From contig JAYWIR010000012.1 in the NCBI GenBank assembly GCA_036172245.1, forward strand, positions 620,001 through 684,000: a DNA stretch of 64,000 nt. Direction: 5' to 3'. The notes beneath the pieces are model-generated. The model worked only from the letters and a program-made list of their open reading frames with translations. It ran no database searches and was not told the DNA's origin. Origin of the DNA: Raillietiella orientalis. Lineage: Eukaryota. The number at the start of each line of letters is the position of its first letter. The stretch's first letter is position 1. The position numbers and the translations under genes are program-made. Of the stretch, positions 3,421 to 62,400 are shown in pieces.

Positions 3421-3429
3421 GAACTCTAG

Positions 3430-5420: not shown

Positions 5421-5534
5421 TCAACTGAGAATATAGTTCCGAAACAACAAGTACCAACAACAGCTAAAGAAAGTCAAGGTGTGGGTTCACCGATATACAA
5501 GTCGTTTGCTGAGCCAGTGATGTGATGAGGATCT

Positions 5535-8230: not shown

Positions 8231-8406
8231 GTGGCCGCCAACTCGGACTGTGTGGCTACGATCCGCGCGCGTGGCGCCAACCGTTGCGGGTTCGAATCTC
8301 CACGCGGAGGATCGATGCGAGAAATGGGTGCACCGTGGTCCCGAGTTTCCCGCCCAGGATGGCACTGGTTGGCCTTGCTTAGCTTCGGGTGCGTCGCTGA
8401 TTGACA
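8231..8406 (+). mobile_element. tRNA-headed SINE-like repeat, copy A (5' part only)
   Basis: B-box GGTTCGAATCT at 8289-8299; homologous to the copies at 10040-10708 (-) and 11638-12630 (+); truncated by the 3' end of a minus-strand LINE at 8407. Confidence 0.6.
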
Positions 8407-9990: not shown

Positions 9991-10039
9991 TAAGGAGTGC
10001 TGAAGAACCGTCCTCTGCCTTAGGGGGGACTCACAGAAC

Positions 10040-10708: not shown

Positions 10709-10709
10709 A

Positions 10710-11620
10710 TATTTATTGGTGTTTATTTACATACGCAACGTTGATATTAATATACATAATAAACAGATTAATACATATCATTGTTTTGAAATAGGATCGC
10801 TATTAACCTTTTGGGTGCGGAGCTCGTCAGGTTTGAACATCCTGTGTTGCGGAGGCCCTGTGACCTTGAGGTTGTGGAGAAGTCAGAATGCAGGAACCCT
10901 CTCTGTATTTGGGGGTAGGGGTGGGGAGGGAGGAGGCTTGAGGGACGGGTTGGCGCATCCAAGGCCTCCTTCACGCAGCTAAGAGTCACGGCGTCTCACG
11001 CAGACAAATCCCGCGAACCGCAGCTGAAACACGCAGATCCTCAAGAGGATGAGCTGAAATGTTCCATCGGTTGAGCAGCTCACCCGCGCAACGGACAGCA
11101 AGGCCCAAAAGCAAACTGCGGGAAGCCCCGCTCCTCTGTGAAGCTGGTCAGCATGCAACGAAGCCAAGGTCGGTATCAGGCGCGCGTTCTCACGACCGTC
11201 TGAAGCCTCAGACTATGAGCACCCTTCCGCTGCTGTTCAGCAGGGTGCCCACTCGGCTGTCTGGATGGCTTCGCTCCGGTCTCGCACCTTGATCGGCACG
11301 GGGCGCGTTGAACTACAAGTGACCAGTGTCCGAAGAGGACGCTCGGCAGGCAGAATACTCGCGTCCCGCATGGAAACCGGACACAAAGTGGCTTCTGCAG
11401 CCCTCCACCAATCGGCTGCATCGGAGACAAAATAGAGAAACGCGATCGGCTGCTGCTGGAGACTTCGGCGCGGTACAGGTTTCCCCTCACGGATGGAACT
11501 TCCAGGAACTTTCCGCACGACGCCATACGTGCTGCTCTTCCTCGAAAACATTGAAGGAAGCCGGAAGTCCGCTCGGCAGAGAAAGCAACGGAAATCGGTG
11601 ACGTCACTTGTCAGTTGCCA
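10710..11620 (-). mobile_element. Decayed 3' fragment of the L1/Tx1-like family
   Basis: Minus RGAGLPAVCFWALLSVARVS resembles MGAGTVIATICWIRASVATRS of the 560-1535 copy; AT-rich 3' UTR with two AATAAA on the minus strand at ~10712-10728. Confidence 0.5.
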
Positions 11621-11637
11621 CGATGAACGCCGGAAGG

Positions 11638-12900
11638 CGTGCGTTGACAGCTGTGCGGCGCCGTCCTCCGAGCATTGCGGGTTCGAATTCCACCTGCTCA
11701 AGGATTGACGCCGATAACGGGGGGTGCTGGTTGGCCTATTCGTGTGCGACACCGATGGAAGCCGGAAACTGGGTGCCCCCATCGAACCTGGACTGCAAAT
11801 GCATCTTCCGGGTCCTCCCAGGAACCAAGGAGCCTGTTCCCTTGGGGATGCCCCTTCGGTTGTGAAAATAGAGTCGTCCGCCCCTGGCATCGTGGGTTCA
11901 AAAACTCCCAACTGAATCGACGCAGTGCATCGTAGGTCCGACTTTCTCCCGCAAGGTGACGCTGCTTTGCGTTTCATCCGGGTTCATTCGGGTGCGACAC
12001 TGGTAGCGGTTGAAACCGGGTGCCCACGATGAGGGCCGGGACAATGCGAGTCGACCTTCTGGTCCTTCCAGGAATCAAGGAGTGGGAGCTCTCCTCCGGT
12101 TGTGAAGGAAAGGACCCCCATTCCGGGGGACTCTCCGCGTCGTACTGATGGAGTAGGTGTGTCTCCATCACCTCTCCAGAGAGTGCAGAGAAGCGAGCCG
12201 ATCCCTTCGGGGAAGCTGCGTCCTTCTGAATTTCGGAAGCGTCCCTTCGAGGCTCTCTTCAGAGGAGTAAAAATAGGAGCGGATCCCTTGCGGGAGATCC
12301 CTCCGGAGAAGAAATTCCAGGATCGGATCCTTTCCGGGTTCCCTTCAGAGAAGAAAAAATGAAGCAGACCCCTCCGGGGAGTCCTCCGGAGAGAATAAGG
12401 AAATAGATTAGAATATAGAATAAGGAAAGAGATTCCTTTCGGGGTTCCCCTTCGGAGACAACCAGAGTGGAGGTGATCTCCATTCCGGGGATCCCTCCCT
12501 AGGCGTGAGAGGAACGGACTCCGAGCTATTTCCTGGAATCATGGGGAGGTCCCCTCGTGGGGTGTCCCCTAAAACTTGAAGAGTCTCACGCACCCTCGGG
12601 TGACATGGAACCGTGTCAAAGAGCTGCAAAGACAGAAAAAAGGGATTTTCATCATCCTATCTTTTGTATTATCGATGAGAGGCACTATGGAGCTGGTTGA
12701 CACCCCCCTCGGGAGTTGCCCCTCCAGAGTGTAAGAAGCGCTCGCTGCTCCCTTCGGAATTCTCTTCAGGGACATGAACAAGGAGAGGCTGCACCTTGAA
12801 GGTGCCCTCCGGGGAAGAAATTCCAGTAGCGGATGCTTTCCAGGTTCCTTCGGAGATAACAAAAAAGAGGTTCCCTTCGGGTTCCTCTACCAAGCAAGCG
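11638..12900 (+). mobile_element. tRNA-headed SINE-like repeat, copy C (duplicated head module, body, plus a partial second body at 12680-12900)
   Basis: B-box GGTTCGAATTC at 11680-11690; 11735-11870 is repeated at 11983-12115; 12296-12360 is repeated at 12802-12868; homologous to copy B in the opposite orientation. Confidence 0.6.
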
Positions 12901-13442
12901 TAGGAGGAACTCCTTCCAGCGAAGCCTTCCTAGATTCCCACCAATCTGCGCAATAAAAGTTGGTCTCGTATTTGAGATCCTCTTCTTCGGGAAAATTCCG
13001 CTTTCCCGTCACCTTTTCCATCATAGGATCGCCTCTTCCTAAAGTCCAGACCGTTCTTGAGCATTTGATTACAAAAAGGATTGGATTGCACGATACATGC
13101 TATATCCCCGGTGTCGATCAAAGTCCCGAAATATCATTAAAAATAAATTTATCCGTATTATTCTACATAGATTAATATACAAATTTATTTTAATACACAC
13201 AGTTATTCATGTTTATTAACACACATATTATGAAGAGTAATATTATTGGGACATATATTTATTGAGATTCAGTGACAAAGATTTCATCAATATAATTAAG
13301 AAGTCGTTGATTAAATTGCTGATATATGCACTTAAGATCATAAAAAATAAATATGTATTCATATGTATATTTAGGTAAAGATTAATATCTACATTAGTAC
13401 ATATCAGGAAGATTATAAAAATAATGACTATAATGACTGAAG

Positions 13443-13969
13443 GTTTATTAACACTTTCAGTCATTCATTCACTAAAGTTAACTGAAATGACACACACAGT
13501 TATTCATATTATTAACTGCACATATTATTAAGCGTAATATTGTTGAAGCATCTACTGATTAAGATTATTGACATAGATTTTATTGATATAATTAATAAGT
13601 GCTTGATTATATTGTATATAGCTCCATTGAAGATTATAAAAAATAAATATATGTTCTTATAACATGTATTGATACGTATATATTCATATAGATATTTGTA
13701 TGTGTGCGTGTATGCATTTATATTCATACATGTGTATAATCCATAAATATGGTTGTATATAATGACAATATATATTAATTAATTTCTTATAATCTTCAAT
13801 AAAGCTATATACAACATAATCAAGCACTTATTAATGATATTAATAAAATCCATGTCAATAATCTTAATCAATAGATGTTTCAGTAATACGTCCTGTTAAT
13901 AAGTACGAATATCTGTGTGTGTCATTCCAGTTAACTTCAGTACATGAATGACTGGAAGTGTTGATAAAC
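13443..13969. repeat. AT-rich foldback (MITE-like) with ~200-bp inverted arms; a third, direct copy of the arm at ~13195-13360
   Basis: Left arm gtttattaacactttcagtcattcattcactaaagttaactgaaatgacacacacag...gattataaaaaataaat (13443-13650) is the reverse complement of 13775-13969 with scattered mismatches. Confidence 0.85.
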
Positions 13970-14244: not shown

Positions 14245-16127
14245 ATGGATAGTGAAGGAAGGAAATTAATTGTTTGCGACAATGGGACCGGAGTAAGTGA
14301 TGTTCATCCGTAAGAAAATGAAAGTGTGAGGCCTTTTAGTATATATTGAGCAGCAATTTGTTCAGAGAAGAGTATATGATGCAATAATCCAGCAGATTTG
14401 ATTTTTCAGTGTTTTTTCTAAAGCAAGATTTGTGAGTTATAGAAATAAGTCTTTGTGAATCTTAGTTAGGTTTGGTTTCAGTAACGGCACTGTGTGCTGT
14501 TGACTTTGACTTGCTCTTTAAGATAGTAATCAGTTTTGAGCACAATAAAAGAAAGCTAAGCAAGTCGTTGTGAAAACCAAATGTGGTAATTGTCACTGAT
14601 GTGTTTTAGTTTGTGAAATGTGGATACGCGGGTTCCAATTTCCCGTTGCATATTTTTCCGTCAATTATTGGAAGGCCGGTGATACGTGCTGGGAACAGAA
14701 TCGGCGATGTGGAAGTCAAGGTAATATGGATACCCACTTTTACATAGCCAAAACCGAAAAAAATTTGTTAGAATCTTATGATTGGAGATGAAGCCAACAA
14801 ATTGAGGTCTGTTTTGCAAATTACGTATCCTATGGAACGGGGCATTATCAGGTTCGTAAATTTGCACTCGATGATAAATGTAATTGTCTTCAGTGTTTTG
14901 ATGATAGATATAGTTGAGGAAATAATTTTAATGTATCTTTTATCTCATATGCCAGTCTGATTCTGATTCTCCTTTCTATTTTATTTATAAATGCAAAATG
15001 TTGTTTCCTTAAGGAATTGGGAAGATATGATGCATTTATGGGACTATACTTTTGGATCTCAAAAAATGACCATTGACCCTACAGAGTGTAAAATACTGCT
15101 TACTGAGCCTCCAATGAATCCACTGCAAAATCGACGAAAAATGATTGAAGTAAATTTAGATATTGGTGTGTTCATTAATGTTTTCCTCCAGGTTATGTTT
15201 GAAAAGTATCATTTTCATGGATGTTCTATTGCTATTCAAGCAGTACTAACTTTGTGCGCTCAGGGCATGCTCACAGGAGTTGTTGTTGATTCTGGTGATG
15301 GAGTAACACACGTATGCCCTGTATATGAAGGCTATGCCATGCCACATTTGACCAAACGGTTAGACATAGCTGGCCGAAACATAACCCGGTATCTCATCAA
15401 GGTAGGAAACAAATCTTCAGTTTGTGGCAAAATCTGATTGCACAATTAGCTGTTGCAGCTGCGTGGATATGCCTTTAATCATTCAGCTGATTTTGAAACA
15501 GTACGCATCATGAAGGAAAAACTTTGTTATATTGCTTATAACCTAGAGCAAGAGCATAGGTTGGCTTTGGAAACCACTGTTCTGATGGAGTCTTACACTG
15601 TGAATAATTTTGCACTCATCTTTAAAATGGTGTCATAGCTTCCAGATGGGCGTGTTATCAAAATTGGAGCTGAGAGATTTGAAGCTCCTGAAGCTCTTTT
15701 TCAGCCTCATCTTATTGATGTGGAGGGACAAGGTTTAGCAGAGTTAGTGTTCAATACTATACAGTCTGCTGATATTAACATTCGATCTGACCTTTATAAA
15801 CGCATTGTATTGTCTGGAGGTTCAACTATGTATCCTGGTTTGCCATCCCGTCTTGAGCGGGAAATTAAACAGTTGTATTTGGATCAGGTGCAACATGGAG
15901 ATGTTTCCAAATTAGCTGTACGTAGTCTCCATGTGTGAAGTACATATTCGTTTCAGAAATTCAAGATGAGGATCGATGAACCTCCCTTAAGAAAAGATAT
16001 GGTATTTATTGGTGGTGCTGTATTGGCCGATATAATGAAAGATAAAGATAATTTCTGGATAAGTCATGCAGAATACCAGGAAAAAGGGTTGCAGGTGTTA
16101 GATAAACTCGACAGGTGTTCTGAATGA
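14245..16127 (+). CDS. ACTR2: Actin-related protein 2 (Arp2/3 complex subunit), 8 coding exons
   Basis: Exons 14245-14292, 14610-14720, 14772-14851, 15014-15149, 15192-15401, 15450-15599, 15639-15917, 15957-16127, all GT-AG. Protein [28 protein letters not shown]...[10 protein letters not shown]...[16 protein letters not shown]...[20 protein letters not shown]...[21 protein letters not shown] is diagnostic of Arp2. AATAAA at 16186. Confidence 0.96.
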
Positions 16128-22176: not shown

Positions 22177-23203
22177 ATTCTGGTTCCGATTCACCGGCAA
22201 CTCCCGCAAACCATCTGTGTGGTCTCGGTAACTGGTTGCATCCTCGTCGACCGTGAAGACTTCTTGATGGAGAGCATTCCGGGCATTCGCACTCGCCCGT
22301 GCGCATTGCAAATGGATGCACGGCGGGCTAGAACGGAGCCACGCTTTCGGGAGGACACGCCTCACGAACAGTTCATCTGAAGGGCTTCTAAAATGGCCAG
22401 GGGCCCTGATAGACGTTCAACGAACGAGTGCCATTGCCGATTCAGAAAACAAGAGCTCCTGCTTCGGATGCTCCCAATCCTCGTACCCTTCGAGAATGCA
22501 TCGAAATCGCAGTTTTTGAGATACTTCCCCGGGACTGCTTCCCCGACCTCTTCTCGGACCGGGTTCAAACCGATTCAAACTTCCTTGTGCACAGCCCTCA
22601 GCTCGGAGGTCGTGCAAACCTTATTTGCCTGACTGCGTTGTTTCAAACGCTCTTTTCTCGGCGAACGCCTGTCTAAGATGGAGGCGCTTTCCCATAGTCT
22701 TCCCCGTCTTGCGAAGAATACTCTTTTGTGACAAGATGCTTCCGCTCCCTGCATTCGATCCGGACGAAGCGTTGGAGCAGCCAAGTGTCGTACTTCAGGA
22801 TGACGACGAAACGGAAGACTACCGACGCCGCGGACGAGGTCTGACGGAAGAGTGAAGATTCCCAGAGAAGGCATTTTAGCAAGCGCCAATGAAACTGCCG
22901 TCATGTTGAACGGCTTGTGGAAACTTGACCGCAACTTCGTCCGTCTCATTTTTTTTCCCCAGTCGGGGCACCGGAGGAAGGTTTTTCGGTTCCACCACGT
23001 GGAGGGGATAGCCGGCATATTTCGGTGCTGGCGAGCTCTTTCCCTTCTTTCTTTTAAAGCGTTTGCTGTTGGCCGGTAATTCACCGGGTGACGCTCGGTG
23101 GATACCAGGATTTCCCCAGCCTCGTGGAACACCTCGAAGAATCCGATGTACTGCCTTTCGAAAGTTATTTTTTCCGGTGCGTCTGCATCACGCGGATACT
23201 TTC
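22177..23203. repeat. ~1.03-kb dispersed repeat, copy 1 (near-identical to 58454-59494)
   Basis: Identical ORF-track translations at a constant 36277-bp offset; by eye one substitution and one 14-bp indel. Confidence 0.95.
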
Positions 23204-23716
23204 GAAGGTTCATTTTTCTTTCTGTTATGTTGTTTCCACGATAATTGGAAACATGACGTGGACGTTCAGTTCTCTTCACTCCGGGAAATGTTTCAGTCTC
23301 AGCTACGTGTGCATTTATTTGTATGCCCTCCTCGCTGGGAAGGGAACGTTTCAGCTGGTCTTGCAGCTTGATCGAATGAAAAGCTAACAGAATGCCACTT
23401 TAATGCTCGAACTTTTGTCTGATGAGCCTGCAGCTCTGCGAACTCTCTGTTTTGGTTCCCAACGTGGGAGCAGGCCGCTTTGGCAAATTGGAAAATCCAT
23501 GTCAAGGAGAGTACGAAAAACGCTGTACCAAAAAGATAAAACGTTCAGATGACGATGTGTCTCTTATCGCCTAATGATCACTTTCCTGGATTGAACTGAA
23601 GAGTCACGTTGGCCAGAACAGATGCAGTGACAGATGTGTTGGAGGTGAAATACGCAATTCTCAAGAGCGTTTGATTGCTATAGGAAATAAAATGAGTGGT
23701 TAAGTGGGACCACGGA

Positions 23717-24716
23717 ATGCAGAAAAATATGCACGATATTCTAAGGAAATACGTAATTCCAGGAATTTATGAATTGTGTTCCGAAGAAAATGTTTGCACA
23801 TCAGATTCTTTCAAATCACACCTTAGGCATTCTTTACAGGTGAAAACCAAAACCTGAGGGTGCATGTTAATTTTATTACTAGGTTTTAGAGGAATGCTAT
23901 CTTATTTACTCACCATCCGAAATTTGTGTAAGTTTCAACGGAGGTAAAGACTGTACTGTTCTCTTGTATCTTGCATTGGCTGTAAGGAAAAAGATGTTCC
24001 CAGATTTGTGCATTAATATGAGGTTAATTTATTTCAAGCATGAGGATTCATTTGAGGAGGTTGAAGGTTTTATACAGAGCACAGTTGAAAGGTGTACATC
24101 TGTAAATCATTCATGTGTTTAATTATCTGTAAATAGCTTAGGATTATCTGTTTTAACACTTTCCTATCCAATGCACTCTGGCTTGGGTACTCTCAAAGAG
24201 CAGCTTCCTCATTTGAAAAGCATACTAATGGGCACAAGACGAAGTGATCCTTTCTCAAACCATTTGATACCCTTTCAGGTAAAAACTGACCGTAAGATTT
24301 TGAGATACAACATATTCCGTTCTAAATAAGCAAGAATGTATTAGAATGAATAATTAAAAAGTATTAGCACCAGATGTATTGCAAAGTGAGTAGAATAAGA
24401 AGCTAATAATTTTACAGATGACTGATCCTGATTGGCCACAATTTATGAGGGTGCACCCATTATTAGAGTGGAATTACCAAGACATTTGGAATTTTATTAG
24501 ACACTTTCAGTTACCCTATTGCTATCTTTACAACCAGGGGTAACAGCCAAACCTACCTGACAGTCTTAAATTTCTTTTTTTAGATATACTTCAATTGGTT
24601 TAAAAAGCAATACTTTCCCCAATCCTCTCCTTCGTTACTTTGATCAAGGAAAAGAATGTTTTTATCCTGCTTATTTACTTGGTGATGTAGATAGTGAGCG
24701 GATTGGTCGTCAGTAA
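23717..24716 (+). CDS. FLAD1: FAD synthase (FMN adenylyltransferase, PAPS-reductase fold), 5 exons, about 242 aa
   Basis: Exons 23717-23839, 23883-24091, 24137-24278, 24418-24539, 24584-24716. Motifs [43 protein letters not shown]...[14 protein letters not shown]...TFPNP, ERIGR. The start codon is less certain. Confidence 0.93.
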
Positions 24717-24930: not shown

Positions 24931-27900
24931 TTAACGTATGAAGCATGTCATGCACAACATTGATGCACTGATGCAGTCATCATGACAAAAGGCACCACAG
25001 TTCTTGCAAGTCACCATGGCCTTCAGACTACAATCACAATTTTTATCAGGAGCAGCACAAACTTTTGGTGTCAAAGGAATGATGCTAGGATGAAGAGACT
25101 CACTCGGCAAAACACCATTGGTTAATGGAATAATGGAATCAACTCTTTTACTTGCTGCAGGGGTCAAATCCACAACTGCTGCCTCCTTAGAAGGGCTATG
25201 ACAGGCTGATGAGATCCCAGTGGTAGTACTGGGTATATCTGTGTGTAGTTCGAAATTTGCATATGGTTCACTGCTTGGTATGTTTTGGTCTTGAGACACA
25301 GTATATGATGACTGTTGCTGGGGAAAACATTCTGGAAGATGAGGGGATGGAAGAGCCAGTTCTGCATGTGGAGGCAAATTCTGCGTGATCATGCCACCAG
25401 AGATGGGAAACATACAGTTAGGAGGCGCACTAGCAGCACGAGGATAGCTGGAAGGGGACTGTGCTGCATACGAAAGTGTGTGCCCTAGCAAATGAATTCC
25501 TTGATTGGCTAAGGTCCCCCCACTACCTCTACGAAGGATGATAGCCTGGCGATATCGCTGGTTTTGTAACTGTGTGGCTGTGATTGTGTTTGTGGGATTT
25601 GTGAGTGCACTACTTGGATAAATGCTAGGTGTATTAGTGGGAGAATGGTGTGCCCAAGGGTATCCATTCATAACAGGCTGTGCACAATCATGAATTTGCA
25701 ATTGTGCAGTTGCTTGAATAGGAGCTCTAGTAGGAGGGTCTAAATGTAACGAAAAAGGACCAGGATTAGGAAATATCACAGATTCACAATGCTTAGAGGG
25801 AAGTACCGAAGGCATGGGTTGTGACAGTTTCTGGGGCTCTGTTCTAACTGGCTTCCCATTCTCTGTCTTGCCATCGGGGGATTCTTTTTGACCATGAGTT
25901 GCAAGAAGCTCTGGAAGAGATATGAGCTGACTCTGCAAGTATTCTCGATTGGCACTCTTCTCGATAACAGCTTGGCAAATTTGGTGAGAGCGTTGTAAAT
26001 TCACTTCTCCTCGAATATTTCCACCAGCTGATCCACATAATGTTTTCTTAGAAAAACAAATATATACATATATAAATAAATAAATAGTTGCACACACACA
26101 CAGAAGAATAGTGAAAGTATTCAACCTACTTTTTTAATTGAAGATCTTGAATTTGTACTTCCAAGAAAAGTGACCATTGGAGGTTGCAGAAAAGTGCGCT
26201 CCTGTGGTTTGCTGAATGATGTTGCTTGTTCCACTAATTGTGTGCAAGAGTTATCAGGAGGATCCACCACAGTATCCATGCTTGCATCTATAGGGGGTGT
26301 TCTGTCATCTGGGGACTGCTGTTCTTTCAGAGATGAATCTTGTGCATCATCTGAAGAAGGCAATTCAAGTATTGATGGTTGCGGTTCAGGAGAAGAAATG
26401 CTTGTTGCATCTAAAGACTCTGGATTACTAGATGCATTTTCAGCAATCTCTATGCAATGCTCAGCATCAGCCAGTTGAATTACAGTTTCTGTCTCTGGCA
26501 CTTCTGCTTCTCCAGAATAAGGATTTTCTAATTCAGCTTCTGAAAAACCATATTAGAACATTATTTATTCGAAGCATGCAACTCAAATAACCTTCATCCT
26601 TAAATATGTATTTGCTACATTAAGCAGCCTATTATTTTTTGCAACTAAGCATTAATTTATTAAGGAATACATTAGCCTTTAAGTCACTTACAGTTACAAA
26701 TTCTTTGAAATATGTATACTATATAGAACAGAATCTTTTGATCAAAGAAAAATTTAAATATGTATCATAATGAATTTATAAATAATTGAGATAAAAGCCA
26801 TTAAATCGTACCAAGAGAAGGCACACTTGGAGCTGCTTCTTGTGATACTTGAGTTGGTGGACTATCTAATGGGAATAAATCTTCTGATGGAGATAAACAA
26901 GGAGGAAGTTCCTCTGCTGAGCTACCCTCTGTTTCATCAGCCATTAGCAAGTTGTTAGATGGAGATTTTGAAAAAGAGGAATATGCTAAAGAAAAGTGTG
27001 GGAGCTCATTTTCTAAATTGCAGTTTTCAACTCGGTCAAACTTTCTTGCAATTTCACCAGGAGACAACGTTTTCAAACCCCATATTGGCTCAAAGTATTT
27101 CAGCTAAAACACATTCTAATAAAAGAATTGAGTTTGCTTATTTTACCTTCCATGGATCTAACTTAGCTCTTTCTTTTTCTGATTCCAGGATGTATTTCTG
27201 CTTACTTTCTGGAGTAAACTCTCCTCTTCCCAACCTTTCTTGCCAGTCTTGACAAGCACGAGTAAAGAATTCATTATTAATAGCTGAGCTGCTTAAACTA
27301 AAAAAAAAAAAAACACACACAAAAAGTAACAATAAAAATAATAATAACGACAATGACAAGAATCAGACATATAAAACTGCATCCCTTACGCCTTCATATA
27401 TGATTTCATTGGAGTCTGTATGGCATCCAAAAAATATGGGTACCAAATTGCTTTGATAAGCTTTAAGTAGAATTCTCGGTAAAATCAATAAGAAAAAACA
27501 ATGATGAACACACTTTTTTCGATTTTGGTACCGTTAATCTGTTTTATCTCATGCTTTGACCAAATATAGTATTTTCAAAATTTGGTGAACTTGAAAAATC
27601 ACTATTTTTTAACATTAGCACCACTAAATTTTAAAATTTTGCGATCCTTTCCTCCGCATTATGAAAACATTAAAAAAAAAAAAAACTGATTTAGGGAAAT
27701 GGATAGGCAAAAAATTTTTTTTTTAATGTATAGCACCATGAAATAAAAAAAAAATTTTTTTTTTTAACATGTTCTGGGAATATTTAGATGCAACAGAAAA
27801 ACTGTTCAGAATTTTTACTACAACGATGTTTTTCGATGCTCATGATTCTATTTTGCTAGATCATTCAAGTAATTGTTCATACAATCAAATGGCTTAAGCA

Positions 27901-30900
27901 CAGGAACTGAATTCTAATAATCCACACATGTAGAGAATTACAAAATAGTTTTTATTTTGCAATTCTCTACATGTTATGATGCAATGCCAAATTTTTGTTG
28001 TTACAAATTAATCAGTAATCTATGTTATAAAGTAACTCTTTGAAAGCCAAGTGAATTGGAAAACCAGGAGTAAAAATGACATAAGAATCACTGCACCAAA
28101 TTTCATCATTAGTATTGGCAAAACCAGAATTCAGCAATAGCAACTGGGATGATTTCATTTCAATTTTCTCTAATGATCATCAATTATCTTATCATATTCA
28201 TGTTATTAGATCACAAAATTATGCAATATTTTCCCACAACAGCAACAATGTATTCAAAACAGAATTCTATGATTACATTATCATATATCTAGTTCAATTA
28301 AAATTAGATGACCATTCATCTCTTCTGATGCTTGAATTATAAAATAATGCTAACCCACTTTTAATAATGAAGTGTGTAACTATAGGAAATTTATCTACTG
28401 GATACATAATAAAATAAATTTAATGCAATTAGATTATCAACAGGAAAATCAATGACTTGAGAATATTGGACGCTTGTTTTTTACATCAAGTCACTAAGTG
28501 GCTATTATGGCTAGTGTAAGATCACCATCATCATCACACTTTGGAAAATGATACAATAGAATACAATTTCCAATCTGTTATTTCTTTCTACCTAACAGCC
28601 AACCAAGGATTAAAATTACAATAAACTAATCCTGATACTAACAAATTGATTAATCTGATTAAATAAAAATCATCTAATAATTTTTCAATGAAACTTATTG
28701 ACTATGTATTCCAATTATATATCGCAACAGGAAATATGATCCATCAATTTCGATTTAATTCTATCAATTCTATTAGTTCCGTATTTAAAGGCTCTTTTCA
28801 TCAATCCAATGGGAATAATATTCCACATCGAAACATCTGCACAAAAGAACCAGTGAAATACCCTGAATTTACCTATCTGAACTTTACATACCATTAACAT
28901 GCAAAATAGTCATACAGGCAAAGACAAAGTAAAGTCTTCACTTTTGCATATTATCATTTATAGTTCTGTATTCTACTAAATACTAAAATAATCCGTTAAA
29001 AACTTATCAAAGAAACTCAAAGATGGTGCTGTAAAAATAATTTGCAAATGAAACTTGTAATTTAATTACCATAATGAAATTTATGGAACCTTACCTGATG
29101 CTTCCATCATCTCCTATCACATGATCAACTTCTGGGACCAATAAAATTAATTTTTGTTGACACTCTGGAGGAAGGGAAGCAAAAGTGTCTAAATTTATTA
29201 ATTCTTTTAAGTTGGTTAACAGCAAAATGGAATTTGGAGTCACAAGATCAATGCATCCTTTTTGAGTATCAGCTAGCTGCGCTGCTGTAGATAATTTCCT
29301 TCGTTTTTTTGGTGCTAGATCATTAATATCTTTTCTATGTTTTCTTTTTTTTTTCAGTATCTTTCTTAAATTGCCAATTGAAAGAATCTCCCCATTCACA
29401 GATGAGTCGCATATTTCTAAAAAAACAAAGACAGATATTTTTTTTGTGTGAAACTAAGAAATTATAACATCTAAGTAAAAATTGTATCAAAACATCTAGT
29501 TTTTTGTTTTTATGAAAGTACATTAACAAAATTTTCTCTCAATTTACACTCACTAATAATAAAAGCAAACAAAGTCTGAAATTTGTATTCAAATCACTGA
29601 ACAGTCATCTTTAGGAACGAGCTACACGATTTCAAATAATGTGTGATTACCAAATGGTGTATCTAAAACTATTCATGCCATGCTTCCAAATCATTCAAAT
29701 ACTTCTAAACAATGGTCAAATTTTCAAAAATCCAATATTGACAAAACGCAATTTACAGCTATTGCTCGCAGTGAATGAAAATACCCATATCATCACTATT
29801 TTCCACCCATGATCTCATTAGTATTTATGCCTGTATCATTATCAATATTTCGTTTAATTCTGGAAAAAAACTAAACCGCCTGCATCAAACTTCGATTTCT
29901 TATAGGTAGTATTTATATTATTAGTGTATAAAATGTGGCTTGAACAACTGTGAAGTTTGCAGACTGACTAAATCCATCTACTCCTCCCTTCTACTACATC
30001 ATGAAAGTTAAGCTACAGTTTTAATTAGTAGAAAATTTACTAAAATGGAACCACATCTTGCATTGAGATAATATTTCTAACTCACTAACTGTATTGGTTT
30101 TGCTTTCAGATTTGTCAAAAAGAGTTTTCAATTTTTAAACTATGTATTTTTGAAAGTCATAGGGCTTCATGACATCACAAATCAGTCTACAGCCAAAAAG
30201 CTACTGATCATATGTGTACTCTCAACATAGGCCAATCAGTCTCAAATTTGAAGGATGCAAGGAAAAAATCATACATTTTCTGATTATATACCGCAATACT
30301 CGCCAACCCATGACAGGAGAGGGGCAAGCACCCAGTCCATTTCCAAAAAGTAGTTTAATACTGGCCACCAGATAAGTTTAATTATCAGACATTAGGCTAA
30401 TAAAAACAGATTTTTATTTGAATGCAAGAGAGAAATACTACATATTGCAGGGGAGAGGATAATCAAAATCTTTTCCAATTTCAGGACAAATTAAGAAGCA
30501 CAAGGTAATAAATGAATAAAATTGACATTTGTGGTAATCAGTGTTTTGAACTGACTCATTTTAATAACATTCTCACACAAATGCTGCGACAAAGAAGAGT
30601 AGAACATGGTCTTGTAAGAGAAAAGCAGCTTAATGCTACCTCACTAAACGAATTATTATGAAGATCAACTTCAGAAGTAATAGCAAAAAATTACAAGTCA
30701 ATTTTAGTTTCTTAGCTTTATTCTTTGATGTTCTGTAATAAGAATGACTGGAGCAAAAACCTTCATTCAGATATTTAAGCCTTCCAAAAAAAGGGAACCC
30801 TGAACTATTACATTACCCTATAATCATATCTTTTTCTTTAGCACTAGGCTAACATGATAACTTCACTATCATGCCAATATCTCCACCAAATGATGCTTTA

Positions 30901-42900: not shown

Positions 42901-43669
42901 AACAAAATACAGTGTAGCTGATCCACTAAAATGTATATATATATATATATATTTTTGTGAAGACATGTGTTGAATACACCCACTGTTTGCTTAAATATTT
43001 ATCTGCTCCTTCCTAGGGTTTATTGGTGCTACCAGACAATAAAAAAAAGTTCAAAGCAAAAGTGAGTGAAACTGCCCACTGCCATTTTCGTTTATATCTT
43101 TTTTAGAATTGCTTTCCTTGAATGAGAAGTCCTCCCAGTGTAAATCATTTTTGTAAAATTCTAGTGTAATTCATAAATACAGTGTTTAATATATGCATGA
43201 ACCCAATAAAGATGTACATGGAGCCACCTGTTTGGATCAAAAGTTTGCTAATGAAAAGCTTACTAAGGCCATGTATTTTCTTTCCACTTTTTTTTCAAGT
43301 CGTTGGGCCTCCTGTTGCTTCTGAACGAGCGAAAAGTTCATCGTTTGCAATGCCGGCAAGAATGTCTAAAACAAGGAATACACCATTCTAAAGTGCAATC
43401 ACGTATTCATGATAAGCACAAGGCTACTCCAAAGTAGTAGATTAGCATAATAATATACCAGCCAGCTTTATAGGAAGACTGTGAATCGGATTACAATGAG
43501 CTAAGCTTTCTTTCACAAGTCAATCGAGGTACTGCCAATTATAAAGCCATGTGTGATTGGGCTGACTGAACATTAAAATCTCATTTGTCTTTGGTCTTTG
43601 GCCAGGGGCAATATACATGGAACCACTCTTTGTTTCGTACATACCTAAAAGCAAAAAGCGAGGCGTTTA

Positions 43670-45896
43670 CCGTAACCTCCCTCATAACGCGGGTTCGTAC
43701 AGCGCGGCGAAAACTTTGCGGCGGTACTCGTATAACGCGGTCGAGCAGCTCCATACGACGCTGTGCGGGTGCATCTGTGGCGTGGTGTGAGCTGAGGTGT
43801 TTTTTAAAAAAGAATACGAACGCACGATTTAAGTAGGTTGAATTCATTTTTTTTTGTGGTTGTTGTTATTTCCACGTTGAAGAGAGAGAGAAAGAGAGAG
43901 AGGAAAAAAAAAAAAAAAAAACCTTTTTCTCCCCTTTTAGCCATGTCCATCGACAACGAGGGAAAAAAAAAGCTGAACAGAAAATTCATATCTTTGGAAG
44001 GAAAAATTCAAATTCTGGATATGTTGCAGTCCGGTGAGAAATTAACGTCTATTGCCAAAGAGTTGAATTTAAGCGAGTCAACAGTTCGGACTATTAAGAA
44101 AAATGAAAACAAAATAAGAGCCAGGATTTCTGCCGGTTCTTTAGTCAGCTTAAACAGAGCTGCTCGTATAAAAGGCACTTTGATGCCGAAAATGGAGAAG
44201 TGCTTGATGCTGTGGATAAAGGATTCTCACTCGAAGAACGTGCCTCTGAACAACCAGGACATAAAACGAAAGGCTCTGGAAATTTACCATCACTTGAGAG
44301 AGCGTGGAGGCGCTTCTTTCAGCGAGCCGCAGAAGACAGAGTTCAGCGCGAGCAAAGGGTGGTTCAACGGCTTCCGGAAACGGTTCTCTTTGGACGGCAT
44401 AAAGATCGTGGGGGACGACGTGTCCGCCGACGTGGAAGGAGCCAAGAAGTTTCGGGAAGAGCTTTGGAAAGTGGTAGGAGAAGGCACGTACACAGCGGAT
44501 CAGGTGTACAACGCGGACAAGTTTGCCTTGTACTGGAAGAGAATGCCCAAGCGGACGTACGTTGCGAAAAATGAGAAATCCGCCTCTGGGTTTACGGCTT
44601 CTAAGGACAAGATCACTTTTGTTCTGTGTTGCAATGCATCCGGAAGTTACTTGACAAAGCCCTTGTTGGTCCATCGCTCCTTGAACTCACGTGTAATGAA
44701 AAGAATCGACAAGTCGAAGTTTCCTATTTACTGGAGAGCAAATAAAAAGGCACGGGTTCCAGGTGTTCTCTTCCGTGATTGGTTTTACAACTGCTTTGTA
44801 CCAGATGTCAAAAATTACTCAGAAAGAAAAAGTATCAGTTTCAAGGCTTTGTTAATCATCGACTGCTCCCCAGAACATCCGACGGATTTAAATCATCCGA
44901 ATGTCAAGGTGATTTTTCTGCCACCCAATACGAGATCGATTCTTCAACCATTGGACCAGGGTATCATAAAAATATTCAAATCCTATTACATACGCCGAAC
45001 ATTTCAACTGATTTTGGATGAAGCTGATAGTAATCCAGATAAAACGGTGCTGCAATTATGGAAGGAGTTTTCGATTTCAAATTGTATACAGATCATTTCT
45101 GAGTCTTTCAAGGAATTGAGATCTTCAACTCTGAATGCTGGCTGGAAGAGAATTTGGCCTGAAGTTGTTGCCAAAGGAAATCGTTTAGCCTCGATGGCAA
45201 CAGAGGTCGATCAGATAATAGGTATTGGTCAATTCTTGGGTGGAGAGGGATTTGACGACATGAACAAGGAGGATGTTCGTGAATTAATTATTAGAGACCA
45301 AGACTTAGACGAAGAAGATCTAGTGCAACTGGCGGACAACTCTGTTCCCAGTTTTCGAAGCGACCACGAAGAAAGTTCCTTACAGATCTTAAATCAGGGA
45401 TTTGACCTCGCCAAAAAGCTCGAAACACATTTTACGGATAATGACCCTTCGACGGAGCGCGTCGCAGAGTTTAAGAGGAAACTGCAAGACTGTATGGCTC
45501 CATATTATGAGATCCAAAGAGAGCTGGAAAGATGCAGCAAGAAGTCTCTGATGGCTGAAATTTTCATGAAGAAAACAGCGGAAGGTGATGCATTTTTTAG
45601 CAGCGAGATTAGGAGAGCCGAAAGTATGGAGGTGTTTAAATAGAATAAAAATCAATAAACAAATAGAATCAAAATCAAATGAAGGAAAAAGTTGTTTTTC
45701 CTTCATTCCAAATTGAATGATCAACAAACAAGTTTAATTTTTTCCCCCTTTGCTTTCGGATGAGCTCAACTTTGTGCTGTTATGACATTTAAGGCACACT
45801 TTGTGTCTTTCATAAATACCATTATTATTCGTATATCACCCATAGGGCTCGTATAACGCGCAGCGTATCCCCGTGTTATACGGAGGAGACCTACTG
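43670..45896 (+). mobile_element. pogo/Tigger DNA transposon shell (about 2.2 kb) with eroded TIRs
   Basis: TA|CCGTAACCTCCCTCATAACGCGGG at left; CCCCGTGTTATACGGAGGAGACCTACTG|CA at right; identical subterminal 13-mer CTCGTATAACGCG at 43727 and 45848. Confidence 0.75.
43943..45643 (+). CDS. pogo/Tigger-type transposase or TIGD/CENP-B-like protein, 566 aa, intronless and intact
   Basis: N-terminal HTH (RKFISLEGKIQIL...IAKELNLSESTVRTIKKN), CENP-B HTH (MEKCLMLWI...FSASKGWFNGFRKR), DDE_1 domain VYNADKFALYW / LLIIDCSPEHP / FLPPNTRSILQPLDQGII (30 residues between D2 and D3); ATG preceded by a polypyrimidine tract plus AG; two AATAAA just after the stop. Confidence 0.92.
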   Translation: MSIDNEGKKKLNRKFISLEGKIQILDMLQSGEKLTSIAKELNLSESTVRTIKKNENKIRARISAGSLVSLNRAARIKGTLMPKMEKCLMLWIKDSHSKNVPLNNQDIKRKALEIYHHLRERGGASFSEPQKTEFSASKGWFNGFRKRFSLDGIKIVGDDVSADVEGAKKFREELWKVVGEGTYTADQVYNADKFALYWKRMPKRTYVAKNEKSASGFTASKDKITFVLCCNASGSYLTKPLLVHRSLNSRVMKRIDKSKFPIYWRANKKARVPGVLFRDWFYNCFVPDVKNYSERKSISFKALLIIDCSPEHPTDLNHPNVKVIFLPPNTRSILQPLDQGIIKIFKSYYIRRTFQLILDEADSNPDKTVLQLWKEFSISNCIQIISESFKELRSSTLNAGWKRIWPEVVAKGNRLASMATEVDQIIGIGQFLGGEGFDDMNKEDVRELIIRDQDLDEEDLVQLADNSVPSFRSDHEESSLQILNQGFDLAKKLETHFTDNDPSTERVAEFKRKLQDCMAPYYEIQRELERCSKKSLMAEIFMKKTAEGDAFFSSEIRRAESMEVFK

Positions 45897-48800
45897 CACT
45901 TGTATGTTTGCTATTAAAATGTGGCTTGGTAATTTTTAATGAGGTCTAGTGATGAATTATTCGACCAGTTACAATAAAGCAAGAAGCTGATAAAATCACC
46001 ATGCAATAGCTCTTTTCAGCTGCGGTAACTTTGTATGTGGGTAATGTGATAATTATTTGTATCTTATTATTTTCTGGGTTGTAAGCGCAGTGGGCACCCA
46101 TAAATGGATTTCTAGGAATGAACTTGATTATATTAATGCCTCACAGTGGTCAATGTAATTAAAAATGCAAGTCTGAGCATTTTCCAGAACTCATGTTATT
46201 GCAAGACAAACAAGATTTCAAAGATCACACAGTATCTCCTTATTTGCTGCTCTTATTCTGAAATACTTATAAAACAGCCACTCTGAACATGAGTTACTAA
46301 GCATAGCTTCGGAAATTTCCGATAATTCCAGGAGTCCTTACTAACATTCGGTTATCGAATAGTAAAGGGAAAAAAATCGAAAACTGGAAGGTGGCAGCCT
46401 CACTTGCCATCGATGATTTGGTGGATGATTCAATTTGCAAACCACTCGTAGATTCAGATATTAGGATGAGTACGTGAGCATCCATGTCCGAGTGCATGTC
46501 TTTTCCATAACGAGCAACTTGGAAGCTCCAAGACTCGTTCTCGGAATCTACATATTAATTTTTGCGCATTTCCTCTCATAAAGGATGATTATGTTATCCA
46601 TAACAAACTCCATACATCAGTTTCCTCGATCCCTTAGCGATTCGTCAATGTATTGAATACGGGTCCGTTTCCGGATGAAGATTAACGAAAAGTGAATTTG
46701 TAATTTCTTCTTAGAAGACCGCATAAAAAGTGTGCTTTCAAGGTACATTTCTAGTGAGGCTAAACCGAGAAGGTCCAAGAAGGTCACTCGTTAGGCAAGT
46801 GACATCATAAACCCAGTAGCAGATAATTCCCACTGCCGAAGATTTTTTTTTTTTTTTAAAATAAACAAGCTTTGAAGACGAAAACCATCTCAGAAGAAAA
46901 GGAATCCCACTTCTGATAATAATAATTTTCTTTGGTGAGCGGCCATGGATGTGAGCCAGCAAGCAGGATTCTACTCTTTCACTGTAAAGCCATATTTCCT
47001 TTTCAAGGAGACTCTACGATGTAACGATCCAAATATGAACTCTCTACTTTTCTTTGCAGCAAACGAAAAAGTTCAGACAAGCAAGCAACGATGGTCAACC
47101 CAAGGACTGAAAACGGAGACCGAAAATCTCTAAACGGGAAGAAACAAAAGGACCATTCTTTGAAAAATTTGAGACTCCAAGATGCTCCCATAGCATTTCA
47201 ATTTCCTTAGCGTGGTTCGTTTCCCAAGTGGATCGATCTCTCGTGTTTACTTTCCTATCAGCTGTGCAGAGAAAAACAATCTCCTACAGACTGTGTTCTC
47301 GATGATTTTTGAAATTTTGGAAGCCCTGCATACCTGGACGAAGCAAAAAGTAGAAGGTGAAGAGACTGCTTGGCATAGAATTCCATACAAACATGGGAAA
47401 ATAATATATTATGTATTCAGAAGTCAGTACGGAGCAGATGCATTTATTCTTGAGGAAAAAAAAACGAGGAACTCGCAGTGGTATCTCACAATCACACCAG
47501 CATTGAAAAAGAACTAGCTCTACTTCAGATCGTTTATTCAAATTTCCAGTGTATTTCAAAGGAAAAATGCGTTGAATTTCCCAATTACTGTTCTTCATAT
47601 TCATACTTTAATTTCATCATGCCATCATTTGCTTAAGCTTCGACTTCTTAGTTCACAAATGCTTCCTTAAACCTTAGGGGAATTCGGTTTCCCCGTTACC
47701 TCGCAAAGCACAGAGGACCGATTTTTAGGCTGCAACTTCAGCTGTTTCCATGTCTGTCTCCCTGCATCTATTGAAAGATAAAAATCGCTCTGAACGAACA
47801 CGGAAGTTTTCTCTTCTTTGAAACATGAGTCGAATCGTATTCAAAATTTCTGCAACGAAGAATTGAAATGGTTAGAAAGATATCATGGAAGAAAGTATGA
47901 AAGCCCGTACTTAATACTTATTCGTATTTCTCTAGTAGGTTACATTCGTATCATCTCCCGCCTATTGGATTTCCCTGAACGCTACTGAGAAGTTTTTAAA
48001 TATTGCATCCTGAAGTTACCATTTCTGAACCATCCGCATGCTCTACATCTCTCAGTTACTTAAGATGGTAGTCAGTGATTACTCAGTTTTTTTCATGTCT
48101 TTTCCTTTAGATAGAACAAAGGAAGCAGCAAAACCACCCTTCACCTAACCTTTTCTGCCCAAGTCATCACTCGAGCCTTTTCAACTTGCTTATCCAAGAG
48201 CCTTTTTCCGTGATGAATATGGATGGATTCAGCCTCCAGTGTAGGACTCAGTCGTTTAGATTGAAGCACATTTCTGTGCTCCCTCATTTCTATTCATGTT
48301 CAACCCTAAAGGCTTAGTTTTGAGGGAACTATAAACACCACATTCTCCTTAAAGATGAAAAGGAATTCATAAAAAAGGAAACGCTGCAATGACGATACAT
48401 TCTTTTAGTATTTACATGCGATTAACTTCCGCCTGTTTGTGTACACTTTCGCAGGATTTAACTTTCACTTCGCTGAGAACTTTGGAATTTTCGAAATCTC
48501 TCATGAAGCTATGAGGACCGCTGAAATTCGCAGGAGGGGTGCCTGGATTTCGACGAGTCCTCGAGTTTCAGTTATTCTGAATCCACCTTACTGTATGTGC
48601 CTGAACTTCAACACTAGCGAACACTAGCATCCAGACACAGCTCTTGAAATATGCCGTTATAACAAACTGCCGGTTCATTGCTCGTAAACATTCATGCACA
48701 ACACGGACCTTTCAAAAGCCCTTATACTATTACTGTTATCATAATTTGCAGAAATGGCTAGCCTGGCTAATCGTGATAACGTGAGAATGCATCTTCAGTA

Positions 48801-58453: not shown

Positions 58454-59494
58454 ATTCTGGTTCCGATTCACCGGCAACTCCCGCAAACCATCTGTGTGGT
58501 CTCGGTAACTGGTTGCGTCCTCGTCGACCGTGAAGACTTCTTGATGGAGAGCATTCCGGGCATTCGCACTCGCCCGTGCGCATTGCAAATGGATGCACGG
58601 CGGGCTAGAACGGAGCCACGCTTTCGGGAGGACACGCCTCACGAACAGTTCATCTGAAGGGCTTCTAAAATGGCCAGGGGCCCTGATAGACGTTCAACGA
58701 ACGAGTGCCATTGCCGATTCAGAAAACAAGAGCTCCTGCTTCGGATGCTCCCAATCCTCGTACCCTTCGAGAATGCATCGAAATCGCAGTTTTTGAGATA
58801 CTTCCCCGGGACTGCTTCCCCGACCTCTTCTCGGACCGGGTTCAAACCGATTCAAACTTCCTTGTGCACAGCCCTCAGCTCGGAGGTCGTGCAAACCTTA
58901 TTTGCCTGACTGCGTTGTTTCAAACGCTCTTTTCTCGGCGAACGCCTGTCTAAGATGGAGGCGCTTTCCCATAGTCTTCCCCGTCTTGCGAAGAATACTC
59001 TTTTGTGACAAGATGCTTCCGCTCCCTGCATTCGATCCGGACGAAGCGTTGGAGCAGCCAAGTGTCGTACTTCAGGATGACGACGAAACGGAAGACTACC
59101 GACGCCGCGGACGAGGTCTGACGGAAGAGTGAAGATTCCCAGAGAAGGCATTTTAGCAAGCGCCAATGAAACTGCCGTCATGTTGAACGGCTTGTGGAAA
59201 CTTGACCGCAACTTCGTCCGTCTCATTTTTTTTCCCCAGTCGGGGCACCGGAGGAAGGTTTTTCGGTTCCACCACGTGGAGGGGATAGCCGGCATATTTC
59301 GGTGCTGGCGAGCTCTTTCCCTTCTTTCTTTTAAAGCGTTTGCTGTTGGCCGGTAATTCACCGGGTGACGCTCGGTGGATACCAGGATTTCCCCAGCCTC
59401 GTGGAACACCTCGAAGAATCCGATGTACTGCCTTTCGAAAGCTATTTCGAATATGTTATTTTTTCCGGTGCGTCTGCATCACGCGGATACTTTC
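58454..59494. repeat. ~1.04-kb dispersed repeat, copy 2 (inside the large mib1 intron)
   Basis: Matches 22177-23203 in the same orientation; carries an extra 14 bp (gctatttcgaatat) near 59441. Confidence 0.95.
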
Positions 59495-62400
59495 CAAGTT
59501 TTATTAATTAACGACCCGTTCCACAAGACACTGATCACACACATGAACGCCGCATTTCAGCGCGTTAATTTGGTGCTGCCATTAAACTGCCGTTAAGTAG
59601 CTGAGAAGAAACTGAAGTTTGCTTTAAATACTTCATTCCATGTGATGGGTAATCTGAATCTGTGAGATTGAGAGGCGTGATTCGAGATGAGAAAGACGAT
59701 TAAAAGGTAAAAACAAGGCGTGAACTAAAATGCAAAAAGATCGCAACATTTTGTATGAGAATTGCGAGTAGAAACGCAGACTTGAAAGACGAGACAGTTG
59801 ACCGAGAAAATCACACAATCATAAACAGGGATAACTCTGTTTTCGATTTCTCCCCACCAGGCTTGAATGAAGCTGGTGGGGAGACACCGAATGGAATATA
59901 AATTGAGCTGTGCGAACAGCGAAGCCACGAATCAATTAGAGTGGTTCATCACCTAAGATAAAGAAATATCATTGAAAAGAAAAAACACTCATTACGAACA
60001 CTTTTGCAAATGGTGTGGGGCGCAACTTCGCCATCATTTAATTGCTGTGAAGACTGAAAAGACTTGACGGCTAGATGCAAATTTCGCAACTTGCTGCTTT
60101 TACAAAAAAGTGAATAGAAACGACTAAATGTGTATCAGAAGAAAAAAAAAAAAAAAAAACAGCATCAGTAAGAATGCACCAATATTTTTTAAAAACGCAG
60201 GTCTCACTTGATTTCGAATTTCTTTCTACAGAAAATATTCGAAATTATAAATATGTTATTTGAACGAAAAGCTAAGATCCATATGTACGCTACAGCACAC
60301 ATGGTATCCAAGTTACTGGAAAGCCATCGTATCTAATACTGCAATAAATTGAATGAAATACACACACGTTCCGAGAGAATAGCTGAAGATGCTTCCAGCC
60401 AGCGCTGCAATGCACATTTGGTGAATTTAATGTATTTGCTGCTGCATCTCAGTCTTTCTGCCATCCCACGACAACGGCACTGCCCGCTGGACACCAGATT
60501 TTGCGATCACATATCAGAGTTAAAAACAAAGCTCAAGGAAATAAGGACTGAAAGTGCAGAAAAAGCGAAGAAGCAGGACACAGGCAGAAGGACGAGAATC
60601 TTTTGATGGAAAGACTCAGCTGCAAGAACAAACGAGATGGGAGTGAGTCGCTGGAGATGCAGGCACCAGAAAACCCCAGATGGAAGAAAGTACAAACTAA
60701 ATCATGGCGAAAACTAAATCAATCATAAAGAATTAAATTAATATGCTGAAACACCGAGAAAACAAAAAACAAATCACACGTAAAATATTCAAAACGACAT
60801 TACACAAGCAAACTTCTTTGTCATTACCAAGTACGAATTTTCAGAATACAAAAAAAGAAAGGCAACATTTACGTCGACAACCGCAAATCTCTCGGGAACG
60901 ATTTACACGTAAAGTGCGCGCGCGCACACACACACACACATCTGAATGGGATTTCTCCAGCCTGTCAATCAATTCCTCTATTCACATACTGATTTCGTTA
61001 TAGGAAGGAAATTCATACAGCTGCTGCTTTCAACAAAAAACATCCTTGCATAAAATTCGCAAACAAAGAAATGTTACATCAGAATTTTCCCAATAAGAGT
61101 CTGAAAAGCAAACGCTTTCATTTTCATATATGAATTTAAATTTTCATATACAAGAGCGTGCAGATCAGCAATCTGAAAACGATGTTTCAGGGAACAGTCA
61201 ACAGCTTGGCGCAAGATATGACCACATAATCCAGCAGAGTGAAGGGATAGAATTTGAGATGAACCTTTCGACACCATAAAATTTTCACTATGCTGAAGAA
61301 CTGATTTTTTGTAGTATTCGAATTGATTGTATGACTTCATGTGATATCCCTCATCAATGAATTTTCAAATTCTACCAATGCGATCATGCACATTTATCTG
61401 TGGGGTGGAAAACGCACAAAAAGTGAAGAAGGAAATCCTTTAAACGTCATTTACGAATACTCAAGTAAGGGGCACAGCATAAAATGCGACATAAATGGAA
61501 TCCAAGGCAAAAAAAACGCATCCTATAGGATTGTATACTTCATGAAATTTCTGGGATATGAATTCAACAGACCACTGCTTAAAAAAAAGGAAAAAAAAAG
61601 AGGAGGCATTGAACGACTAGCAGCAGCAAAAGTTAGGAAGGAACACATGCAATTTGGCTAACGAGCAAAAACAACTTCAGGAAATATACAAAAGTCGGCA
61701 CAAAACAAAGTATGAATGAGATCGCACGGTGAAAAAAGGACACGAGAGAACAACGCTAAAATTCTTCACGGAATATTAAGGGGGAACGCACATCAACTCG
61801 AGTGGGATTTTCTCCATCTTCATTCAGCTACTGATTTTATAAAACAATATTTCGTGAAACGTTTCTCACGATCTGCGTATGGCAAACGCGGGTGCTCGGA
61901 TAAGTTTCCAATATGCAGTACCAGACAGTACAGAAGCTAACCGCTTGCAGTACTGAATGTACATCACGATAAGTGAGAAAAACGGCCGTTCTTCGAACAG
62001 CCCAGGGTGTTGAAAATTTCGGGAACCAACGGGCGGCTAAGTTTCGAACGAATCTTTCGCGGAGTCTGCTGAAAAAAGCTGTACGGATGCGCACATATTA
62101 TATACGCATATTGCAAATGCAAGAAGAGCAGTATAGGTTGGATGAAGGCTCGAAAGCACAAGATGGTTGCCAAACACTGAAGACCTTTCTCAGCCACTCG
62201 CTTGCTCGAATCCCATCATACATCAGCATATGAGGGATATTTCAGAATTTAACAGGAGTCGGAGAAAACACAGAAAAAAGAAACAGAGGTGGAACAGGGC
62301 GACGTGGGCGAAATAGTGCGAAATTGATCTTTTCCTTAAAAGATGAACTTGTGTCTCTTTGCCTTAAAAAGAGATAACCCTCCTTTCTTCGCTGTTTACA

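Follow-up and report, generated by a model that had tools for sequence, protein, structure and literature searches.

Is the transposase gene of a Tigger transposon that can very probably no longer move kept open by chance, or by selection for something other than its own movement? The question is raised by an element in a 64,000-nucleotide (nt) stretch of the Raillietiella orientalis genome (assembly GCA_036172245.1, contig JAYWIR010000012.1, positions 620,001 to 684,000 of the forward strand), which is referred to below as the window and in which all positions are counted. The element spans 43670–45896 (2,227 bp) and has the ordinary Tigger layout, with a leader of 273 nt, one long open reading frame (ORF) and a trailer of 253 nt. 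These limits had been proposed in a first-pass annotation and were found to be correct, since the elements of relatives show the same plan. The ORF is complete, the ends are worn and residues that hardly vary among relatives have changed beside the catalytic aspartates. Our tentative reading, to which we give somewhat less than even weight, is that this is an immobile full-length copy whose transposase frame has been held open by selection unrelated to moving its own copy, and hence a candidate for early, lineage-specific domestication.

The gene itself was examined for integrity and domain content. Positions 43943–45643 of the forward strand form a single ORF of 566 codons that runs from an ATG at 43943 to a TAG stop (45641–45643) without any internal stop, in agreement with the first-pass annotation. 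By a hand calculation, a frame of 566 codons would be open by chance with a probability of about (61/64)^566, roughly 1e-12. The start codon is homologous to the starts of relatives (MS..K.KFISLE), and the frame is collinear with those of relatives from start to stop. Pfam domains follow each other in the order CENP-B_N, HTH_Tnp_Tc5 and DDE_1, which is the usual order of pogo/Tigger transposases, and the two helix-turn-helix (HTH) domains are both intact, as had been claimed (Table 1). The only solved structures matched by sequence were the DNA-binding domain of CENP-B (1HLV; amino acids (aa) 17–148, E 8.3e-5) and a fly HTH domain. The aspartates D192, D307 and D338 fall in columns that hold an aspartate in 69–72 of the 74 aligned relatives, and the 30 residues that separate D307 and D338 lie inside the DD29-36D range given for Tigger (PMC7386202). 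On sequence grounds, 43943–45643 encodes a pogo/Tigger transposase with a bipartite CENP-B-type HTH region and a DDE_1 domain.

The ends are in a different state from those of relatives. Four related elements with both ends on a contig (L002, L003, L004 and L006) have ends of 25–31 nt that are 96–100% complementary in all four cases, flanked by TA and starting with CA; in L004 the end reads TA followed by CAGTAATCCCCCCTATAACACGGTA, and four to five TATAACRCG motifs occur within each end, including a direct-orientation copy near the right end. In the window element, the alignment of the left and right arms has 29 columns, of which 19 are matches, 4 are mismatches and 6 are gap columns that make up three events; several of the differences fall in the outermost 10 nt, and the arms differ in length by 3–4 nt. 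The left arm starts with CC, compared to CA at all eight ends of the four relatives, and the TA found on the left faces a CA on the right (45897–45898). Thus, neither the high complementarity of short terminal repeats, about 20–25 bp long, nor the TA duplication on both sides that are expected of a Tigger element is present, and the mutual divergence of the repeats and the CA in place of the right TA were both described accurately in the first-pass annotation. A strict local alignment of both flanks gave nothing above shuffled sequences (score 20 vs 18.9 ± 2.5), and under softer scoring the score was equalled by 2–27 of 500 shuffles. Each arm is about as similar to the ends of L004 and L002 (18–20 matches of 26–29 columns) as it is to its partner, despite transposases that are only 45–50% identical. 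The motif TATAACRCG or ATAACRCGG occurs four times (43684, 43731, 45852 and 45871), each copy within about 70 nt of an end, against an expectation of 0.33–0.43 from shuffling, and no copy was found elsewhere in the window. Because both arms resemble the terminal repeats of relatives and the motif is confined to the ends, the ends are real; they are degraded yet recognisable, with four motif copies remaining. Because they are worn, the element has very probably lost its mobility.

We compared this decay with the state of the gene by simulating neutral change on the present ORF, which was counted as open when it had no stop and kept its start codon; frameshifting indels could be added at one-tenth of the substitution rate. 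With stops and start only, the probability that the frame remained open fell from 22% at 0.02 changes per site to 2% at 0.05 and 0.5% at 0.08; with frameshifts it was 0.9% and 0.025% at the two lower divergences, and the frame was open in 0 of 4,000 trials at 0.08. Provided that the ends were perfect at insertion, as they are in four of four close relatives, and that ends and gene change at equal rates, the joint probability of the observed arm differences and an open frame of 1,698 nt was at most 4.5e-3 at any divergence between 0.005 and 0.16 if substitutions alone were counted; including the three indels of the arms and frameshifts of the ORF lowered this limit to 1e-7. Free drift from perfect ends is therefore rejected, as no single neutral divergence yields both the end decay and the open frame. 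The earlier claim that the frame had been kept open after mobility was lost withstands this test, while the domestication that had been concluded from it is plausible rather than demonstrated.

A serious alternative explanation, doubtful but a real possibility, is that the element is an ordinary stranded Tigger copy without a host function, which was inserted fairly recently so that its frame is still unbroken, whose ends were imperfect from the start or quickly damaged, as might happen when excision is aborted and the termini are repaired carelessly, and whose odd residues reflect a poorly sampled lineage. The location of several arm differences within the outermost 10 nt would be in keeping with damage at the cleavage sites, and the leader, ORF, trailer and subterminal motifs together make up a normal element. 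However, this explanation requires end damage far above the background rate, or ends that were imperfect at birth in a group in which 4 of 4 relatives have nearly or fully complementary ends, and the two arms differ from each other (19/29) about as much as from the ends of families in which transposase identity is only 45–50% (19/26 and 20/28).

The residues of the catalytic core also set the window protein apart. In an alignment with 74 relatives (A1), 101 columns were at least 90% conserved among the others, and the window protein deviated in 15 of these, compared to a median of 3. Adjusted for overall divergence, the deviation was 14.9% observed vs 5.7% predicted (z 2.56). All but one of the 15 deviations fall in aa 153–345, whereas those of the other 74 sequences are even along the protein (209 in the core and 116 in the rest, with equal per-column rates), giving a binomial P of 0.012 and, by Fisher's test on columns, 0.017. 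Within the six-member clade to which the protein belongs, 14 of the 15 deviations are private to it, the exception being R77K. Three of the 15 are neighbours of the catalytic aspartates. Around the three aspartates, which are retained, DKF, DCS and NTRS stand in place of the family residues DET, DNA and NTTS. In a wider pairwise sample of 301–340 relatives, the counts were 8 of 301 for K193, 5 of 340 for C308 and 1 of 338 for R331, and two of these residues never occurred together in a relative; the odd residues that had been pointed out beside the catalytic aspartates are thus real and rare. Among 19 relatives that combine clear ends with long ORFs, all 19 have N after the second aspartate and all 19 have T at the position of R331. 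The residue after the first aspartate was readable in 17 of them and is E in 16, the exception (L053) having K. An excess at near-invariant sites that is domain-specific (P 0.012) would not be yielded by the plain decay of a stranded copy.

A third possibility is that the element still works autonomously, or that it is an immobile copy that provides active transposase in trans to family copies or miniature inverted-repeat transposable elements (MITEs). The complete ORF, both HTH domains, the DDD triad with a spacing typical for Tigger (PMC7386202) and the four binding-type motifs kept at the ends would all suit such an element, K after the first aspartate is tolerated in the end-bearing L053, and catalysis is still possible because the triad and its spacing are intact. 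We nevertheless consider continued activity unlikely, since the left end begins with CC where 8 of 8 ends of relatives have CA, the arms differ in length by 3–4 nt, and C308 and R331 lie beside the catalytic aspartates where 19/19 end-bearing relatives have N and T. Neither a second copy of the element nor a MITE was found within the window, nor was there a motif cluster away from the element, and supply in trans gives no selective reason for keeping an immobile copy open.

Relatives were sought in several collections. A word-indexed search of near-length proteins gave 418 matches with a best identity of 57–59%, and nearly all of those that carried a name were called 'tigger transposable element-derived protein 1-like' and came from arachnids, bees, flies and other organisms. 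When 1.84 billion cluster representatives were searched exhaustively, 14,522 matched (best 48–52%); a search of shorter proteins gave at best a match of 71% over 10% of the query, metagenome contigs held 383 confirmed relatives (best 50%), and viral contigs held none. We then scanned for terminal repeats uniformly in 80 fetched loci, 62 of which had both flanks long enough to be analysed. A repeat of the TA-CA type was found in 31 of the 62 loci, with scores of 35–154, while the best alignment in the window scored 25 and was spurious. Good ends were combined with ORFs shorter than 500 aa in 12 relatives, and L004 (619–2887), with perfect 28-nt ends and a broken ORF (longest 334 aa), is in the state opposite to that of the window element. 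In the same scan, six loci, L013–L017 (30–31% identity) and L020 (34%), had frames of 587–598 aa with no terminal repeat within 600–700 nt of the ORF; they could belong to a family whose ends differ, or be immobile copies as well.

Identity along the protein bears on a fourth explanation, namely that the element is a mosaic, in which gene conversion, or template switching in the course of gap repair, replaced the interior of an old shell with that of a younger copy, or in which the two ends come from different subfamilies. The arms are indeed as unlike each other as they are unlike the ends of other families, and the GC content at third codon positions is uneven along the ORF (0.60–0.72 for aa 101–250 vs 0.36–0.52 elsewhere). 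However, the nearest relatives match the protein with even identity over its length, in almost all 60-aa windows the scorpion family comes closest, and no donor copy is known, which leaves a mosaic very improbable. A chimeric protein was also considered and was rejected, as sliding identity to relatives is even along its whole length.

Several points weigh against domestication. Intact Tigger elements are common in arthropods, with at least one in 159 of 183 species according to one survey (PMC9219625), which also speaks for a stranded copy. The same is true of the position of the protein in a tree of 42 rows, where it nests in a 6-row clade (SH-aLRT, an approximate likelihood ratio test, 100) of transposon copies from scorpion, monarch butterfly and others; its end branch (0.43 vs a median of 0.26) was not flagged as long, and the tree as a whole mixes phyla, as expected of horizontally moving transposons. 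The phylogeny with relatives that the first-pass annotation had put forward as a check thus gave no clade apart from mobile copies, but a single sequence among them. None of the three protein searches, in any length class, found a relative above 59% identity; with the nearest one at only 57–59%, much of the private protein change, or even most of it, may predate the insertion. Both the DDD triad and its DD30D spacing are preserved, as they would be in a stranded copy, and L053 shows that K after the first aspartate can occur together with recognisable ends. As many near-invariant deviations, or more, are carried by 3 of the 74 relatives, another count of 3 in 74 have an equal or larger excess after adjustment, and highly deviating relatives are enriched in the core too (P0023 18/4, P0113 15/2 and P0022 11/3). 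A stranded copy is further favoured by the uniform scan, in which 11 of 30 relatives with ORFs of at least 500 aa also lacked a detectable terminal repeat; several of these 11 are distant (27–31% identity) or lie on contigs with short flanks, and some are probably technical misses, due to cut contigs or distant families. In a Drosophila screen, single-copy transposase ORFs without ends were reported to be often debris rather than domesticated genes (PMC13548663). Finally, the neutral test depends on the two premises given with it.

If the frame has nevertheless been kept by selection at the level of the host, as we tentatively infer, the protein, which retains both CENP-B-type HTH domains and the family-typical C-terminal part, would because of these still bind the TATAACRCG sites of its family, four of which are left at its own ends. 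Cutting would probably be weakened or changed because the residues beside all three aspartates are altered. The protein would then serve as a sequence-specific DNA binder. It might repress related Tigger copies or act on them as a poison subunit, or it might work in chromatin or regulation much as CENP-B-like proteins do. Its transcription may begin in the CpG-normal stretch between the element and the gene to its left. An apparent promoter-side position beside a divergently oriented gene supports domestication, and shared divergent promoters have been described for a recently domesticated mariner transposase and for cag in Drosophila (PMC13548663). A more detailed scenario, possible but to be held with some doubt, is that of a domestication in progress: a Tigger would have landed 5' of Asx, a gene of the Polycomb group, its ends would have been lost, and its transposase would have been kept as a binder of TATAACRCG with a disabled or altered active site. 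This protein could repress its own transposon family or, expressed from the divergent promoter region of Asx, serve as a new chromatin factor, with the shell still recognisable.

The first-pass annotation had placed the gene head-to-head with Asx; the divergent orientation stands, while the nearest detectable Asx exon (29103–29321) is 14 kb from the element, and tblastn with 95 Asx N-termini revealed no 5' exons between 29.4 and 43.7 kb. The last Asx exon (400 aa) matches only via its PHD domain (9–14% of the query), best to beetle and fly Asx (73–77%). The ratio of observed to expected CpG (o/e) is 0.1–0.4 over 24–35.8 kb and 39.8–43.4 kb, interrupted by a CpG-normal island at 35.8–39.8 kb, and rises to 0.8–1.1 rightward from 43.4 kb, with 1.06 in the element and about 1 in the mib-like gene. 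The CpG-depleted domain stops about 270 bp from the left end of the element. The depletion across the body of Asx looks like the mosaic signature of gene-body-type methylation, and it is plausible, though unproven, that the domain edge near 43.4 kb marks the 5' end of Asx and that the two genes lie head-to-head. Just within the depleted domain, at 43265–43342 on the minus strand, an ATG is followed after 26 codons by GTAAG; judging from these signals, the leftward gene may have its first coding exon here. CpG content was also considered as a marker of the age of the element and was rejected: its o/e matches that of the unmethylated-type DNA to its right, and its CpG retention is therefore uninformative on age. 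The presence of a mib gene on the other side was confirmed, as a mib-like gene with RING and ankyrin domains occupies the minus strand from 53979. The microsatellites noted in the leader are present as well; their expansion, which had also been claimed, is presumed, and the leader of L004 has none.

Other features of the window were recorded. A direct repeat of 1,052 bp (22177–23214 and 58454–59505; 98.3% identical) has long minus-strand ORFs with identical translation and no Pfam match, and probably belongs to a young host repeat family. An actin-like coding sequence at 14991–16124 on the plus strand extends across three frames (Pfam Actin E 5.8e-31, 5.6e-23 and 5.2e-6) and looks like a frameshifted, intron-less actin copy. 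An ORF with a PAPS_reduct match (23883–24119, plus strand, E 2.9e-7) lies tail-to-tail with the end of Asx. Positions 1–12000 form a GC-rich block (50–56% GC) with long ORFs in six frames, and none of the 60 ORFs tested from 137–13778 had a Pfam match. An Rfam scan of the window gave no match.

Table 1 Features of the Tigger element and its neighbourhood, in window coordinates.
Feature	Position	Strand	Remarks
TA, left copy of the target-site duplication	43668..43669	.	L004 and L002 have TA on both flanks
Left terminal arm CCGTAACCTCCCTCATAACGCGGG	43670..43693	+	Begins CC; 19/26 columns match the L004 terminal repeat
Two subterminal motif copies, ATAACGCGG at 43684 and TATAACGCGG at 43731	43684..43740	+	L004 has 4–5 such motifs per end
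Microsatellites of the 5' leader, (AG)11 at 43881–43902 and A18 at 43904–43921	43881..43921	+	
Transposase gene	43943..45643	+	566 codons and TAG; intron unnecessary
First HTH, CENP-B_N, aa 13–61	43979..44125	+	Pfam E 2.2e-6
Second HTH, HTH_Tnp_Tc5, aa 82–152	44186..44398	+	Pfam E 8.8e-14
Catalytic triad codons D192 (44516–44518), D307 (44861–44863) and D338 (44954–44956)	44516..44956	+	DD30D; K193/F194, C308/S309 and R331 atypical
DDE_1 match, aa 221–401	44603..45145	+	Pfam E 9.5e-37
Two AATAAA hexamers (45644–45649 and 45654–45659) immediately 3' of the stop	45644..45659	+	Putative poly(A) signals
Motif TATAACGCG, direct orientation, near the right end	45852..45860	+	L004 has a direct-orientation copy at the equivalent place
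Right terminal arm CAGTAGGTCTCCTCCGTATAACACGGGG	45869..45896	-	Contains the motif at 45871–45880; 20/28 columns match the L004 terminal repeat
CA at the expected right TA copy	45897..45898	.	
Asx PHD_3 exon	24934–26133	-	Domain match
Asx ASXH exons	27141–27362, 29094–29453	-	Domain match
mib-like gene (two RINGs, ankyrin repeats)	from 53979	-	Domain matches

Vertebrates, fission yeast and flies are well known to have domesticated pogo/Tigger transposases, and the candidate described here belongs to a known kind of event; to our knowledge, nearly all of these genes came to light when their transposon shell had long disappeared. If the early-domestication reading is true, a gene with readable ends and motifs would reveal the order of events, namely immobilisation followed by changes of the neighbours of the active site with DNA binding kept, and the shell would also supply the binding site directly. 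If the element is merely a stranded copy, it adds a further Tigger to those of an arthropod-like genome.

Compared to its nearest Tigger relatives (P0003 and P0010 of the scorpion Centruroides, and the assembly copies P0004, P0023, L001 and L004), the window element shares the domain order CENP-B_N/HTH_Tnp_Tc5/DDE_1, a DDD triad with 30 residues between its second and third aspartates, an intron-less ORF of about 570 aa in an element of about 2.2 kb, and ends of the type CAGTAA..CC..TATAACRCGG after a flanking TA, with the subterminal TATAACRCG repeated. It differs from them in ends that are 66% alike with three gaps vs 96–100%, in CC for CA on the left and CA for TA on the right, in 15 near-invariant changes vs a median of 3, in its unique combination of K193, C308 and R331, and in a best identity of 57–59%. 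As in the vertebrate host genes derived from pogo (CENPB, JRK, JRKL and TIGD2-7, together with POGK and POGZ), most of which are reported to stem from complete transposase genes (PMC7386202), a whole transposase ORF with CENP-B-type DNA-binding domains has been kept open. Those genes are described as having orthologues across species with high identity and a low ratio of nonsynonymous to synonymous substitution rates (dN/dS), and as having lost their transposon ends (PMC7386202), whereas the window element keeps recognisable ends, motifs and an intact DDD triad; the sequence link to them was compared via the 1HLV match only. LOC26532114, a recently domesticated mariner of the Drosophila obscura group that shares its divergent promoter with the adjacent gene, belongs to Tc1/mariner rather than pogo and is reported to have lost its DDE domain and to have orthologues in four species, a dN/dS of 0.7, an intron within its 5' untranslated region and measured expression (PMC13548663). 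The window gene is nevertheless like LOC26532114 in being a young, lineage-restricted candidate with the DNA-binding part intact and the catalytic part altered, in a plausible head-to-head arrangement with a host gene.

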